In this document: in pieces, positions 9,464 through 39,377 of the stretch
Position numbering within the stretch: the first letter of the stretch is position 1
Layout of the letters: each line of letters begins with the position of its first letter
IMG/VR virus record: IMGVR_UViG_2565956710_000003
Location: 1-46,613 of that record
DNA: 46,613 bases
Strand: one strand, 5' to 3'
Origin: a virus
Taxonomy: Duplodnaviria > Heunggongvirae > Uroviricota > Caudoviricetes
Translations under genes and position numbers: made by a program
The notes under the pieces: generated by a model
The model's database searches: none
Told to the model about the DNA's origin: nothing
What the model saw: only the letters and a program-made list of their open reading frames with translations

Positions 9464-10399
9464 TTATTCTGCGTCAATATCTTCTACGGTTAGTAGAGGG
9501 TGTACCTTATCAAGCAATTGGATGAAATCTTCATAAGTATCGCTTGCTTGCATGAGTGTTGTTACCCCTGTAAGTCTCTTTTGAAGAAGACCATATCCAG
9601 TTCCCTCTGATAGAAACTGATGCATTTTTGCACCTGCCTTTTTTGCTTTTGCTCTTTCTTCCTTTAGCGCATTTCTTAGCTCTGGTGCCATGCGGTCATA
9701 AGTTATGTTATTCACAAGATGACCAAAGTATTGCGGTCTCCGCATGTTTGCTTTGAATGGGACTCCTCTGAGTCTACATAACTCCTCAAAGAATTCTGGC
9801 GGATATGTGCTTACCCATGGTCGCATTTCTTTAGCGATGAATTGCTCAAGGAGTTTTGCCAGTTCATCGCGCTCTCGTTCTTTTTGGTATCCAGTCGCTT
9901 CATCAACGAGCGCAACGGCGCCAACTCTGGCTAGAGCTTTATAGAGCGCTTTGGCTTTTGCAGCTGTATTCAAGTGATGCTTTTGTCGTAGGGCTCCATC
10001 CCTCTCAGCATCTGTCCATGCCTCGCAAAGCGCTGGTAGCATAGTAACGTCAATGCCATAAGCGACACCTGCACCTGATGTATTTTTATATACAATTGGT
10101 TCTGCTAGCGCTTCTCTTAGTTCATCAGAAATATATGGCTGAAGCTCATTTGCTTGGAGAACATATGGTAATTGACCTGGCTTCCCATTTGGTACCCATC
10201 TTGGCATTTTTGAGCCAACAGATACACCGAATGTTTCTGCCAATCCATTTGCACCTTGCATTGAAACCACTCTGCGACCATCAGGCAAAACAGCACAAGA
10301 AACACCTGTCGCCATTAATCCTGTGTGAGTTGGCTTTGGAGCTGATCTAACGATTGCTGACATTGCTGCTGCTTTTTGAGCTCGTTTTTTAGTATCCAT
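9464..10399 (-). CDS. Uncharacterised 311-aa protein occupying the lambda rexAB position
   Basis: ATG-start ORF (MDTKKRAQKAAAMSAIV...) between cI and pL, same strand as cI; own AT-rich upstream region; no similarity to RexA/RexB that I can recognise. Confidence 0.7.
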   Translation of the reverse strand: MDTKKRAQKAAAMSAIVRSAPKPTHTGLMATGVSCAVLPDGRRVVSMQGANGLAETFGVSVGSKMPRWVPNGKPGQLPYVLQANELQPYISDELREALAEPIVYKNTSGAGVAYGIDVTMLPALCEAWTDAERDGALRQKHHLNTAAKAKALYKALARVGAVALVDEATGYQKERERDELAKLLEQFIAKEMRPWVSTYPPEFFEELCRLRGVPFKANMRRPQYFGHLVNNITYDRMAPELRNALKEERAKAKKAGAKMHQFLSEGTGYGLLQKRLTGVTTLMQASDTYEDFIQLLDKVHPLLTVEDIDAE

Positions 10400-10610
10400 A
10401 AATCCCCCATATGCTTGGTTATGGTGATGATAGCTTATTTCAAATAAGCAGGGCAATGGTAGCTAAATCATTAATTAGCTACAAAATGCATCATTTTTAT
10501 TTATCTCATTGATATGTATATATTTATCGATAAAATATTTTTAGCTGTTCTGTGATTAAGCTAAATATTAATGCTAATTAATGCGTTAGCACAATGTGTG
10601 GATCACTACC

Positions 10611-11659: not shown

Positions 11660-11777
11660 ATAACCCCGCTCTTACACATCCCAGCCCTGAAAAAGGGCAT
11701 CCAATTAAACCACACCTATGGTGTATGCATTTATTTGCATACCTTCAATCAATTGTTATCTAAGGAAATACTTACAT

Positions 11778-12071
11778 ATGGTTCGTGCAAACAAACGCAA
11801 CGAGGCTCTAAGAATCGAGAGTGCGTTGCTTAACAAAATCGCAATGCTTGGAACTGAGAAGACAGCGGAAGCTGTGGGAGTTGATAAGTCGCAGATCAGC
11901 AGGTGGAAGAGGGACTGGATTCCAAAGTTCTCAATGCTGCTTGCTGTTCTTGAATGGGGTGTCGTTGACGACGACATGGCTCGATTGGCACGACAAGTTG
12001 CTTCGATTCTCACCAATAAAAAACGCCCGGCGGCAACCGAGCGTTCTGAACAAATCCAGATGGAATTCTGA
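11778..12071 (+). CDS. cII: CII transcriptional activator
   Basis: 97-aa ORF MVRANKRNEALRIESALLNKIAMLGTEKTAEAVGVDKSQISRWKRDWIPKFSMLLAVLEWGV, lambda CII. Confidence 0.95.
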   Translation: MVRANKRNEALRIESALLNKIAMLGTEKTAEAVGVDKSQISRWKRDWIPKFSMLLAVLEWGVVDDDMARLARQVASILTNKKRPAATERSEQIQMEF

Positions 12072-12103
12072 GGGAATTACTGGATCAATCCACAGGAGTA
12101 ATT

Positions 12104-12265
12104 ATGACAAAACGTCGTAAGAAATACCAGGAAAAAGAAGAGATTCGACACCCTGATTCACCTGAGGGATTAGTGGTAGCCGCAGCAAATAACAGGGCGT
12201 TCGCAGATCGCCTTGTTGGTGTTTACAGACTAGCAAAAGCAGGAGTGAAACATGGGCGTCGTTAA
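12104..12265 (+). CDS. Small basic hypothetical protein between cII and the initiator gene
   Basis: 53-aa ORF MTKRRKKYQEKEE... with AGGAG 5 nt upstream; below the length cut-off of the ORF track. Confidence 0.35.
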   Translation: MTKRRKKYQEKEEIRHPDSPEGLVVAAANNRAFADRLVGVYRLAKAGVKHGRR

Positions 12266-12314
12266 GTTAGCTGATTACAGGCATAACCCTGTACAACATC
12301 AGGAGGCATCCAGT

Positions 12315-13131
12315 ATGGGGTATGTCTCTATACACCGCCAGTTTATGGACAGCAGGCTCTATAAGGACTCTCAGGCAGTACATCTTTGGCTTCACTTAAT
12401 CCTCAAGGCTAATCACGAATCTACTGTCGTCAATACGGATATCGGTCCGATAACTGTTGATCGCGGTCAGATGATAACTGGACGCCCGTCGCTGGTCAGA
12501 GAAACATTCATCCCAGACAACAAAGTTCGGAGCTTATTACGGACTTTTGAGTCGAAAGGGATGCTTAATATTTGCTCGATGGGGAAGAAATTTAGCCTGT
12601 TTACAATCGTTAAATATGACGATTTTCAGGCAAAAAATTGTCCAACGGTTGTCCAACGGTTGTCCAACGCAAACACCAGTAATGGCGCGCCTCTCAGCGG
12701 AGATTGTCCAACGGTTGTCCAACGGTTGTCCATAAACAATAATATAAATAATATCTCTAATACTGACGTATTAGAGAGTGCCACAGCAGACAAAAAGTCT
12801 GACAAGAAAAAACCTTCCGTCAGCTGTCAGGATGTTGTCGATGCTTACCACGAAATCCTTCCTGAAGCGCCAAGAATCCGCGCACTGAATGACAAGCGTA
12901 AAAACCAGATCCGAACGTTCTGGCGCAAAGCCGGAGTGATAACCCGACAGCTTGACGGGCATGGTTTCACGATGCAGGACTGGAGAAATTATTTGAGCTA
13001 CGTAGGCGAAAATTGCCGATGGATGTTCGAAGAGCGCCCAAACCATCAACGCGGAACCGTCTGGCACAAAAAGGGATTTGATTTCCTGCTTAACGATAAT
13101 ACCTACCTGAAAGTTCGTGAGGGTGAACACG

Positions 13132-13142
<11 letters not shown>
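12315..13142 (+). CDS. Replication initiator (O-like, with internal origin iterons)
   Basis: ORF carrying two clusters of TTGTCCAACGG iterons and an AT-rich stretch; start chosen at the ATG with AGGAGG 8 nt upstream (an alternative start is at 12252). Confidence 0.7.
12638..12733. repeat. Origin iterons: two clusters of 11-bp TTGTCCAACGG repeats, followed by an AT-rich unwinding-like stretch
   Basis: Tandem units at 12638-12670 and 12704-12733 separated by 33 bp; AT-rich run 12733-12760 immediately after. Confidence 0.75.
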
Positions 13143-16527
<3,385 letters not shown>

Positions 16528-28297: not shown

Positions 28298-29182
28298 ATG
28301 GAAAACGAACTGATCATCGACGGTCAGGTTATTGACCTGTCTGAAACACAGGAAAATGCAGAAGAAACCATCATCCAAACAGAGTCACAGCCTGAGAATG
28401 AAAGCCAGGATGACAACGGAAAAGAGATGGCAACTGATCCTGAAAAAACCGAAGAGACACCAGAAGATTACGCCTTGCGTATTGGTGATGAAGAAATTCA
28501 GCTTAACGCTGACGATGATGATCACATTGACGGGCAACCTGCACCGCAATGGGTGAAAGATCTTCGCAAAGGCTTCAAAGAAACACAGAAAGAAAACCGT
28601 GAGTTGCGCCGCCAGCTTGAGGAAGCATTAGCCAAGCCTGCGGAACATCAGCAACCACAACCAGACGCTATTCCACCAAAACCGACTCTTGAGTCGTGTG
28701 ATTATGACGAACAGGCGTTTGAACAGGCATTGACTGATTGGCATGAGAAAAAAGGCCGTGTCGAACAGCAGCAGCAACAAAAAATACGTCAGCAACAGGA
28801 ATACCAACAGCGTTTCCAGCAAAGGGTAGAAGCGCATAAACAACGGGCAGCCAAACTTCCTGTGAAAGATTATCAGGAAATGGAGGCCATTGTTCTTAGT
28901 GAGCTACCACCAATTCAGCAGGAAATCATCATTCACTGTGCAGACGAAGGCTCTGAACTACTCGCCTATGGATTAGGTAAGAGCCAGCAATTACGCCAGC
29001 GTGTAGCCGCTGAGACAGATCCAATTCGCGCAGCATTCCTCTTGGGGCAGATTAGCAAACAGGTAAGCCTTGCTCCAAAACCAAAGAAAGCCATCAAGCC
29101 AGAGCCGGAAGTACGCGGTGGCGGTGCTGATGCGAAACAAGACGAATTCAACAAATTATGCCCCGGCGCAAAAATCGAATAA
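28298..29182 (+). CDS. Scaffolding protein
   Basis: 294-aa highly charged, Gln/Glu-rich helical protein between portal and coat (P22 gp8 position). Confidence 0.8.
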   Translation: MENELIIDGQVIDLSETQENAEETIIQTESQPENESQDDNGKEMATDPEKTEETPEDYALRIGDEEIQLNADDDDHIDGQPAPQWVKDLRKGFKETQKENRELRRQLEEALAKPAEHQQPQPDAIPPKPTLESCDYDEQAFEQALTDWHEKKGRVEQQQQQKIRQQQEYQQRFQQRVEAHKQRAAKLPVKDYQEMEAIVLSELPPIQQEIIIHCADEGSELLAYGLGKSQQLRQRVAAETDPIRAAFLLGQISKQVSLAPKPKKAIKPEPEVRGGGADAKQDEFNKLCPGAKIE

Positions 29183-36037: not shown

Positions 36038-38145
36038 GTTTACCCGAAGGCTTTGTTCTCGATAATCAGCCTGATAACTCACAGCTTCCTGATGGTTTTG
36101 TGCTTGATGCCCAACCAGAACAGCAGCAATCACCTTTGGTTTCGCCAGAGGAAAATTCCAGACAGGAAAATGTTGTTAATAATGCTAACGGTTTCGACCG
36201 TTTTATGTATGGCGTTCTCAGTGGATTGATGGATGTTGGTAAAGGTGTTGGCCTGTTTCAGGATATGACACCAGAAGAGCAAGCCGCAATTCAGTCTCTA
36301 CAGCAGAAGTTAGCGGCAAAACCATCAACCGCACAAGATGTTGGTGAGTTTGTTGGACAAGCAGCGCCATTTGTTAGTGGTGGTGGGATTATTTCTCAGG
36401 TTCCGAAAGGGGCGGCAAGGCTGGCTGCCGCCGCAGGGCTTGGTGCTGGAGAAGGGGCTATTGTAGCCAATGGAACAAATAGCGATGTTGCTTCTGGAGC
36501 TGCTATTGGCGCTGTGGCTGGCCCTGTAGCAGAGATTGTTGGTCCAGCGCTTGGGAAGATTGCAGGAAAAATTAAAAATAGTGCCGGAGATATTTATCGC
36601 TCATCCGTAGGGATGGGTAGTAAATCATCTAAAGCAACGTTAAAGAAAGCTGCTGGCGCAATGGACAATAAATTTATCGGCGGGCAACGAGCTATTCAAG
36701 ATTTCGCCGATGAAGTTAATCCTGATTTTAACGCGATAAATGCTATTCGTGAGCTAGAACTGGAAAATTATGCCACTCCAGGCATGATCTCTAATAATCC
36801 TGCTGTCAGGGCTCTTGATAATGCAGTGGCAAGTCTCCCTGGAACAGAGATTAGTGAGGCGCATAAGCGTTTTATTACTGAATTAGGAAGAAAAGCTGAT
36901 GAAATGATAACTTCATTTGGGGGAAGCCTTGATAAGCAACTGGTTTCTGACAGGCTTGCAGATAATTTTGATAAAACCATTTCATCATTACAAAATCAGT
37001 CAGATAACATCTACAACAAAATTGCCGAAAAGGTTCCTGTAAGAGACCGGATTGAGGCAACTAATACATTGAATTTTTTAGAGGATTTTGCTGATGATAT
37101 AGGTGGAATTGATGAATTATCTCCAATAATGAAGCGGACATTGAACCGACTTGATCCAAACACCTTGCCAACGTATGGGCGTTTAGATCTCGCTAGAAAG
37201 CAGGTTGGGCAAGCTATTGGCAAAGGCTCTGGCCCATTCAAGGATGAAGAAACAGGTGTTCTTAAAAAGTTATATGCAGCTATAACAGATGACCAACAGG
37301 CTGTCGCAGAAAAATATGGCGCAGGGGAGTTATGGACGCTTGGTAAGGAGTTGGTAAAAAAACGAAAATCCATTGAAGATGATGCCGTAACCGTTTTGGG
37401 TAGAAAACTTCAGCAATCAGCAATTCCAAAAGTTGAAAGTGCCGTTGTTAATATGGCAAAAGGAAACGGTGGTGACTTTAGGCAATTAATGAAGTCAATT
37501 CCAAAGGATATGCGGCAGGAAGTTGCGCTCACTTCAATGAATAAAGCATTTACCAGCTATGCTAAATCACCAGGTCAGCAATTAGGGGTTGATGGATTTG
37601 TAAAATGGTATAACGGAATGTCACGCAATGGGGCCAATATGAAGGCTCTCCGTGATGCTATTGGCACAGATGCATCAAAGCGCCTTGATACGATTTATCA
37701 AGCAGCCAAGGCTATGAATAGACTCAATACTGGTAAGCAGTATGCTAGCAGCCTTGTGGATCAGCAAGTTAATAACTTTCTGAAAGAAAAGGGTAGTCTC
37801 GCAAAAATTTATGGAATAGCCTCAAAAGCTGCTGCGGCGGAAGGTATTACAAGCTTATCTGGTCTTCCTGGTGTAGGTGCAACAGGGGTGATAACGTCAG
37901 CATTGATGTCAGGGAAAACAAGCAGGATAAAGGCTGCTGATGCTCTACTGTCTTCTCCTGAGTTTAAATCAATGCTATTTCGCCTGCAAAACGCACCAGT
38001 AGACAGAGCAGAAGTGAGACGCGTAATAGAAAGGAAACTGATGCAATCTGGGGCATTTAAGAGATGGGAGAAAACCTTATCAACAGATGAAGCAAAAACC
38101 ATTGCCCGCACGGGGATTATTACATGGCTCGCTAGTGACAGTTAG
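36022..38145 (+). CDS. Ejection protein (P22 gp16-like)
   Basis: 707-aa ORF, last and largest of the ejection-protein genes. Confidence 0.6.
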
Positions 38146-38958: not shown

Positions 38959-39044
38959 GATATACCTCAACATGCACCCGTTATTGGGCGATTAAATATT
39001 GATCTCATTTTATGAGTAGTCAATATGGTCCAAAAAAGGCAAAA

Positions 39045-39072
39045 ATTAACCCACCGTCAGGTGGTTTTTTTG
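39045..39072. terminator. Bidirectional rho-independent terminator
   Basis: Hairpin CCACC-GTCA-GGTGG flanked by an A-run upstream and TTTTTTT downstream; overlaps the 3' end of the Mnt-like gene. Confidence 0.6.
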
Positions 39073-39377
39073 TTTAGCAGTTCTCTCAACTTTTCGTTCT
39101 GCTCTCTGAACTTTTCCTGTATTTCTTTTTGCATGGCGATAACCTGGGCTTGAAGTTGAACTAGCGCATCAACATTTAGCGGAACCGAGACGCTGTTGAT
39201 TTTATCTGCTATTTCCCCGAGTGTATTTTCTGCATTCAAGGCATCTTCCAGTATCTGAACAATCTCTGAGTTCATTGATCTGCCGTTACGTTTGGCTCGT
39301 TCAGCTATAGCATCCCGCATTCCTGCAGGAAGCCTGATATTGAACCTATCCATTTCATGACTAGGGAACTTGCTCAT
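39057..39377 (-). CDS. mnt: Mnt-like ribbon-helix-helix repressor (copy 1)
   Basis: 106-aa ORF with RHH motif FNIRLPAGMRDAIAERAKRNGRSMNSEIVQILEDAL and a C-terminal coiled coil ending KKTT, as P22 Mnt does. Confidence 0.7.
   Translation of the reverse strand: MSKFPSHEMDRFNIRLPAGMRDAIAERAKRNGRSMNSEIVQILEDALNAENTLGEIADKINSVSVPLNVDALVQLQAQVIAMQKEIQEKFREQNEKLRELLNKKTT

Follow-up and report, generated by a model that had tools for sequence, protein, structure and literature searches.

Does a short array of direct repeats inside the replication initiator gene of a lambdoid prophage mark the place where that phage begins to copy its DNA, and if it does, to which replication system does it belong? 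The locus lies in IMG/VR record IMGVR_UViG_2565956710_000003, all 46,613 nucleotides (nt) of which were analysed and are referred to here as the window. A first-pass annotation, made from the letters alone, had read two clusters of an 11-bp unit and the AT-rich stretch behind them as an origin of lambda-type layout, served by an initiator that is not lambda O. Our comparisons make it very likely that the array is the replication origin of an Sf6/HK620/phage L-type lambdoid module, situated inside the gene of the initiator that would use it, as judged from sequence conservation and from analogy with the lambda origin. By its sequence, the array is the already known putative origin of this type of module.

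An array of 11-bp iterons in the initiator gene

The initiator gene occupies 12252-13142 on the plus strand and encodes a protein of 296 residues (phrog_345, 'replication initiation O-like', E 4e-85). Within it lie two iteron clusters, which, like the spacer, the AT-rich tract and the inverted repeat described below, are given without a strand. Cluster 1 (12638-12670) consists of three 11-bp direct repeats, TTGTCCAACGG, TTGTCCAACGG and TTGTCCAACGC. Cluster 2 (12704-12732) holds two full units and a truncated third (TTGTCCA). The spacer between the clusters (12671-12703) measures 33 bp; its sequence is variable among relatives, and the 66-bp period from cluster to cluster is kept. Tandem Repeats Finder returned one period-11 array at 12638-12669 (2.9 copies) and a second at 12704-12732 (2.6 copies), each with the consensus TTGTCCAACGG and a 100% match, and a repeat search recovered six in-register copies whose starts are 11, 11, 44, 11 and 11 bp apart. 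Both analyses agree with the first-pass annotation on two clusters separated by 33 bp, their starts being 66 bp apart.

Copies of the 11-mer with no mismatch or one number only five in the entire window, and all five are in the array region, four of them exact and one ending in C. The chance expectation for the exact 11-mer is about 0.02 per window on both strands, so five clustered copies are far beyond chance. The sixth unit is truncated (TTGTCCAT...), and this truncated last unit is kept in all relatives. The unit had been described as unlike that of lambda, and it is indeed an 11-bp direct repeat, not a ~19-bp dyad-symmetric site. We also considered a dyad reading, in which CAACgGTTG across the unit junctions would yield four lambda-like symmetric sites, and rejected it on the sequences of phage L and ST160, which have CAACGGATG at that place.

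The 9-nt core TTGTCCAAC has a sole other copy in the window, at 36350-36360 on the minus strand. About 0.36 such matches are expected by chance, and this copy is probably without meaning.

The array coincides with putative origins already marked in related phages

Window positions 12080-13398 match the replication modules of Sf6, HK629, HK75, HK106, mEp234, HK633, IME10 and others at 98.7-99% identity. Comparison with HK-series phages had been proposed by the first-pass annotation as a check, and the DNA of the HK629, HK75, HK106 and HK633 modules falls in this range of identity. The GenBank record of Sf6 carries a rep_origin feature at 28385-28480, which corresponds by alignment offset to window 12637-12732, exactly the iteron array, and is labelled 'putative; repeat region reminiscent of the phage lambda origin; similar to phage HK620'. 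In the phage L record a putative origin is annotated at the same place, where a predicted terminator is listed too, and in the phage L genome paper the likely origin is given as the 11-bp repeat TGTCCAACGGA (PMC8022706). According to the same paper, the identity of L gp18 is 25% with P22 gp18 and 15% with lambda O, and the complete replication region of L can stand in functionally for that of P22 (PMC8022706). A literature search for the exact iteron string returned nothing.

The features that mark this module are all present in the window: a near-identical initiator, six 11-bp repeats with the core TGTCCAACG inside the initiator gene, and a DnaB-like helicase gene downstream. In Sf6, as in HK620, HK629, HK75, HK106, mEp234 and IME10, the iteron, the AT-rich tract and the palindrome are the same as in the window. 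Sf6 differs in single-base variants of two units (TTGTCCAACGT and CTGTCCAACGG) and in its 434-type operators, whereas the module of the window is joined to lambda immunity and its helicase gene is split by IS100.

An AT-rich tract and a co-varying palindrome follow the iterons

Immediately after cluster 2 comes the AT-rich tract TAAACAATAATATAAATAATA (12733-12753), the presumed DNA-unwinding element, which has one G or C in 21 nt. The G+C fraction is 0.225-0.25 in 40-nt windows starting at 12720 and 12740 and drops to 0.10 in the poorest 30 nt, which start at about 12732, in keeping with the strongly AT-rich stretch that had been noted after the repeats.

Directly after this tract stands a perfect inverted repeat with 10-bp arms, TCTCTAATAC-tgac-GTATTAGAGA, at 12754-12777. 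The first-pass annotation does not mention it. Among relatives the palindrome occurs in 15 distinct versions (ungapped alignment), in which 96% of the cells are paired, against 63% in column shuffles; pairing falls to 30-49% when the partner is slid by 1-3 columns. Nine of the ten pairs have changed on both sides in a compensatory manner, and one-sided changes of the G-T type are found in none. Changes that are only Watson-Crick, with no G-T intermediates, fit an element that acts at the DNA level. As single-stranded DNA, the palindrome of the window is predicted to form a hairpin of -9.4 kcal/mol (z -4.2). The co-variation among relatives supports the view that the palindrome is part of the putative origin.

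The initiator is not a detectable relative of lambda O

At the protein level the initiator is 99-100% identical to Sf6 gp43, HK629 O and the mEp234 protein, and 82% identical to that of phage L; its gene shares 99% identity with Sf6 gene 43 and with the "O" genes of HK629, HK75 and mEp234. An AlphaFold2 model built on a 60-sequence alignment (mean predicted local distance difference test score, pLDDT, 68.8) shows folded domains at residues ~23-125 and ~189-296, with a low-confidence linker at ~128-188. The iterons correspond to codons 130-161 of the 296, and the iterons, AT-rich tract and palindrome together to codons 130-177. On this model, the origin DNA would encode the predicted disordered linker between the two domains, a location in which the stretch can carry a DNA signal and vary in length. 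A Foldseek search with the N-terminal domain returned winged-helix DNA-binding domains as its only matches (TubR, the CodY DNA-binding domain, MarR and CadC), all weak, with E values of 0.02-0.1.

The claim that the initiator is not lambda O stood up to every comparison that we made. BLASTP found no match between the two proteins (best E 4.5), none of the 60 members of the initiator family matched the Pfam family PF04492 (Phage_rep_O) at E values up to 1, and hhalign, comparing the family profile with lambda O as a single sequence, gave a probability of 0.1%. Homology to lambda O was therefore rejected, and since none is detectable, the initiator is better described as an analogue than as a member of that family. 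Searches by sequence against solved structures gave no match at E values up to 1, and no NCBIfam model matched either of the proteins searched.

What similarity there is points elsewhere. With tblastn, the N-terminal domain is weakly similar (E 1e-8 to 1e-4) to proteins named 'replisome organizer' or 'DnaD-like helicase loader' in phages of Bacillus, Staphylococcus and Lactobacillus. PHROG matches to DnaD-like loaders range from E 1e-23 to 1e-10, and the Pfam family Phage_rep_org_N matches only 3 of the 60 family members, at E 0.07.

Iteron cores change together with the initiator N-terminal domain

We compared the window with annotated phages and with about 240 IMG/VR loci. They have one layout in common, with three 11-bp units to a cluster, and it is kept in the 153 distinct arrays compared, whose initiator N-terminal domains are 44-100% identical to that of the window. 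Every two-cluster array has the 66-bp cluster period, the truncated sixth unit, the AT-rich tract and the palindrome. The palindrome lies 116-119 nt after the first unit, or 108 nt in the Erwinia phage vB_EhrS_59. Within the TGTCCAAC class, the core of 8-9 nt is almost invariant, and the 2-3 bases between cores and the 33-bp spacer vary.

Which core an array carries follows the N-terminal domain of its initiator. Relatives with an N-terminal domain at least 74% identical to that of the window have the core TGTCCAAC, be their C-terminal domain 48% or 100% alike. Those of the HK022/mEp235 type, with an N-terminal domain ~50% identical and a C-terminal domain 100% identical, have the core TACCAGCA, and relatives from Klebsiella, Yersinia and Erwinia have the cores GTGCCAAC or TTACCAAC. 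From these sequences, the iteron core appears to change as a block with the initiator N-terminal domain. The helicase, for its part, follows the other half of the protein: its identity correlates with that of the C-terminal domain (Spearman 0.69) and not with that of the N-terminal domain (0.21).

The phage vB_EhrS_59 (our locus L008, 938-1888) is a natural chimera. It combines the N-terminal domain and iterons of this family with a C-terminal domain 70% identical to that of lambda O, and the next gene encodes a lambda-P-like loader. In this phage a ParB-like gene stands in place of the small upstream open reading frame (ORF).

The array also varies in length. Since 11 bp do not make whole codons, each unit of a three-unit cluster is read in a different frame, and a peptide repeat (CPTVVQRLSN...) exists only at the 66-bp level, as a unit of 22 residues. 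Initiators of 274, 296 and 318 residues differ by whole units of this kind and correspond to one, two and three clusters. Such cluster-number variants include P0002 (318 residues), P0036 (274 residues) and the loci L062, L244 and L064, and the variants with a single cluster come from prophages of Shigella flexneri and E. coli ST131.

One variant departs from the reading frame itself. In P0039/L248 (Logan contig SRR23153152_3127, gene 317-1195), the A-run ahead of the array is shorter by 1 nt and cluster 2 lacks one 11-bp unit, with the result that about 65 nt are read in another frame before the frame is restored; the remaining iterons are unchanged. This is a single contig in which a sequencing error is possible, and the weight that it can bear is limited.

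Likeness to known replication systems

The closest points of comparison are phages that share part of the module. In phage L (ST64T type), gene 18 has the core of the window, two clusters of three units, the AT-rich tract and the palindrome. The C-terminal domain and helicase are 95-100% identical to those of the window, whereas the N-terminal domain is only 74% identical, the bases between cores are not the same (GGA versus GGT), and the small ORF upstream belongs to the unrelated orf48 type. The 'O' proteins of HK022, mEp235 and Stx2-86 belong to the same family, with 66-67% identity overall. Their C-terminal domain is 100% and their helicase 87-100% identical, and the position of the AT-rich tract and the palindrome are the same, whereas the N-terminal domain is ~50% identical and the core is TACCAGCA, not TGTCCAAC. 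Such a core, together with such an N-terminal domain, predicts a different origin specificity.

The resemblance to lambda is one of layout. In lambda, four iterons (39034-39118) are followed by an AT-rich tract and then by the palindrome GTCAGAGAATTC-tggc-GAATCCTCTGAC, with 12-bp arms and a 4-nt spacer; the origin occupies the central part of the initiator gene, where the inter-domain region is encoded, and the order of the elements is the same as here. The first-pass annotation was right in this respect, as repeats in the inter-domain part of the initiator gene, an AT-rich tract and an inverted repeat follow one another in both. The differences lie in the elements themselves: the four sites of lambda are ~19 bp long and each is dyad-symmetric, in contrast to the 11-bp direct repeats in two triplets found here. 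The window has neither such dyad-symmetric iterons nor a PF04492 match, the features of the lambda O family. The partners of lambda O are the P loader and the DnaB of the host; in the window, the gene after the initiator gene encodes a DnaB-like helicase of the phage itself. Lambda O itself uses its N-terminal domain for the origin and its C-terminal domain for the helicase partner (PMC2629481), a division of labour that is also established knowledge, and in lambda-type Stx phages the number of iterons varies with matching insertions in the protein (PMC7466680).

P22 genes 18 and 12 have the same order (small ORF, initiator, DnaB-like helicase) and origin repeats inside the initiator gene, and the window shares the mark of the P22-type module, a DnaB-family helicase gene after the initiator gene and not a lambda-P-type loader. 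The repeats of P22 gene 18, four of ~20 bp, have a different sequence (PMC8022706). Gram-positive phage replisome organisers and DnaD-like initiators of the SPP1 G38P type are more distant, only the N-terminal domain being weakly similar, and they differ in C-terminal domain, iterons and host range. SPP1 G38P binds repeats inside its own gene.

A model for initiation

A working model can be drawn from these features. The N-terminal winged-helix-like domain of the initiator would recognise the 8-9 bp core TGTCCAAC(G) of the 11-bp units. The units are one helical turn apart, three to a cluster, which would line up the bound proteins on a single face of the helix, and the two clusters are 66 bp apart. 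The resulting nucleoprotein complex may destabilise the adjacent AT-rich tract, and the C-terminal domain may then recruit the DnaB-type helicase encoded by the next gene of the phage, and not a lambda-P-type loader. The palindrome at the far edge of the AT-rich tract could form a hairpin or cruciform or offer a symmetric protein site, possibly as the point of helicase entry. We infer binding, unwinding and helicase recruitment by analogy with lambda O and the lambda origin (Tsurimoto and Matsubara 1981, as cited in PMC8022706; PMC7466680) and from the domain-swap pattern.

An initiator with no detectable homology to lambda O may read its origin differently from lambda. One such arrangement would have single winged-helix domains bound head to tail on the three in-phase 11-bp direct repeats of each cluster, with the number of clusters varying freely between one and three, and the strongly co-varying palindrome as entry or loading site for a DnaB-type helicase of the phage that has no lambda-P-type loader. 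We put this forward tentatively, as a possibility that is rather less likely than not to be right as a whole.

Other explanations for the array

Could the repeats matter only as protein? A flexible linker peptide, multiplied by slippage and with no role in cis, would account for the 22-residue peptide repeat, for initiators of 274, 296 and 318 residues with one, two and three copies of it, and for the predicted disorder of the region. It sits badly with the DNA. The 11-bp unit falls in three different frames per cluster, what is invariant is a core of 8-9 nt and not the positions between cores or the spacer, and one variant reads the array DNA in another frame. The core moreover switches as a block with the type of N-terminal domain, and the adjacent palindrome co-varies at the nucleotide level. 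We consider a peptide-only role highly improbable. Scarcely better placed is the idea that the repeats are bound by a protein other than the initiator, either host DnaA or the small basic protein encoded upstream. The unit does match the DnaA box TTATCCACA at 6 of 9 positions, and a small basic ORF is always found immediately upstream, overlapping the initiator gene. Yet no DnaA box TTATCCACA with one mismatch or fewer occurs in 12000-13200, and the cores TGTCCAAC, TACCAGCA and GTGCCAAC differ between phages whose hosts have near-identical DnaA, on which grounds the DnaA-box reading was rejected. The small ORF fails as a specificity factor because its type does not track the iteron type: phage L and mEp235 share a similar orf48-type ORF but have different iterons, while the small ORFs of the window and L are dissimilar (29% identity, poor alignment) and the iteron core is the same. 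Binding by either protein is thus very unlikely.

It has also to be asked whether the region is mainly a transcription signal or a recombination joint, the palindrome and its T-rich tail on the minus strand serving as a terminator and the repeats as a hotspot of mosaic exchange. A scan for terminator-like patterns has a match at 12777-12754 of the minus strand, a predicted terminator is listed there in the record of phage L, and unlike N-terminal halves join identical C-terminal halves at or near the palindrome. The stem, however, is AT-rich, with only three G-C pairs, the T-run is interrupted, and there is no known leftward transcript that would need a stop there, for which reasons we rank the terminator low. 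Co-variation that is only Watson-Crick, with no G-T intermediates, fits a DNA-level element instead. A mosaic joint at the origin is just what would be expected if the N-terminal domain and the iterons are one functional unit, and the lambda origin has a palindrome at the same position. A terminator or joint as the main function is therefore most improbable.

Several points weigh against the array being an origin of the kind proposed here. In the literature, apart from the HK620 and Sf6 genome papers, which were not covered, we found no binding, footprint or origin-plasmid experiment for this iteron type, and the annotations of this origin, in the Sf6 and phage L sources, all say 'putative'. 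The terminator-like scan does register the palindrome, if as a weak match. The structure model is only moderate, as its mean pLDDT shows, and its fold matches are weak (E at least 0.02). With no homology to lambda O detectable by sequence, the mechanistic analogy with lambda is not backed by homology. Iterons, N-terminal domain, C-terminal domain and helicase gene are also adjacent, so simple linkage could produce the patterns of co-variation; it can explain in part the matching of core to N-terminal domain and of C-terminal domain to helicase. Finally, since one-cluster prophage variants exist, two clusters may not be required.

Genomic setting

The replication module of the window borders a lambda immunity region. 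By blastn, lambda 38300-38693 matches window 11718-12111 at 97%, and the cI, cro and cII genes upstream of the initiator gene are those of lambda, which bears out the immunity assignment of the first-pass annotation. The homology ends at 12111, 8 nt into a short ORF, at the end of a conserved lambdoid boundary sequence named bsq5 in the Sf6 record (12070-12111, plus strand). The bsq5 sequence carries a Shine-Dalgarno sequence and the ATGACAAA start, and the ATG of the short ORF is the start of gene O in lambda. A 33-nt conserved boundary sequence is quoted in PMC3349717. The end of lambda homology at this boundary explains how lambda immunity comes to stand beside a replication module that is not that of lambda.

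The short ORF (12104-12265, plus strand) encodes 53 residues. A GGAG lies 7 nt before its ATG, and its last 14 nt overlap the beginning of the initiator gene. This ORF had been singled out as lacking in lambda, and lambda is naturally without the orf that lies between oop and the initiator gene in P22 (PMC3349717). The short ORF is already a known feature, being a homologue of HK97 gp53 and Sf6 gp42 (phrog_1331, E 3e-37, unknown function). The place between cII and the initiator gene is filled by small ORFs of two kinds that are apparently unrelated to each other, the HK97 gp53/Sf6 gp42 kind and the P22 orf48 kind, as seen at window 12104-12265 and at L004:387-533, L005:411-557, L006:453-599 and L007:426-590. 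Both kinds overlap the initiator start, and neither follows the iteron type.

Downstream, a gene for a DnaB-like replicative helicase of the Sf6 gene 44/P22 gene 12 type begins at 13132, overlapping the initiator stop at 13142. Its 5' part (13132-13398, plus strand) matches the Pfam DnaB N-terminal domain (E 3e-23) and its 3' part (15358-16527, plus strand) matches DnaB_C (E 2e-60). Between the two is an IS100 element (13399-15352, minus strand; 1954 bp, istA and istB), 99.9% identical to annotated plasmid copies of IS100 and flanked by a 5-bp target duplication, CTTAT, at 13394-13398 and 15353-15357. The blastn match to Sf6 ends at 13398. When IS100 and one CTTAT copy are removed in silico, the helicase ORF reads through to 478 residues, and since it is otherwise intact, the insertion looks recent. 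The junction of helicase and IS100 was found in no complete E. coli genome, and the only place with a coverage of 80% or more of the query ends at window 13398. With its helicase gene split, the origin in this prophage copy is probably not self-sufficient, and the insertion probably disables autonomous replication of the prophage.

The rest of the window is a P22-like prophage, with HK620/Sf6-like virion genes and an HK97-like integrase region. To the left of cI, in the position that rexA and rexB have in lambda, a 330-residue ORF (9464-10456, minus strand) contains a P63C domain (Pfam E 7.5e-23). The 3' end of cII contains a terminator-like hairpin, complete with T-run, at 12020-12047 on the minus strand; an oop-like RNA is annotated in HK629 and HK633 directly downstream, at about 12017-12086 by alignment offset, and the hairpin is presumably the terminator of this RNA. 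Across the whole window, Rfam gave no family match at the gathering threshold, including none to oop RNA, and a tRNA scan found nothing.

Significance

The observation is real but ordinary. The putative origin belongs to a common module and has been annotated before, in the records of Sf6 and phage L, so it is of little importance for genome annotation. In 4116 of 5426 complete E. coli genomes there is a match to the stretch that we searched, which includes conserved lambdoid cII sequence and part of IS100. What our analysis adds is incremental: the conservation of the layout across the family, the matching of iteron core to N-terminal domain, the variation in cluster number, the co-variation of the palindrome and the Erwinia chimera.

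For the individual prophage, IS100 in the helicase gene suggests that it cannot replicate on its own. For the family, these modules form a natural data set on the evolution of origin specificity, in which the core goes with the N-terminal domain and the C-terminal domain goes with the helicase partner. Placed in a predicted disordered linker, the origin DNA can accommodate different copy numbers and even a different reading frame.

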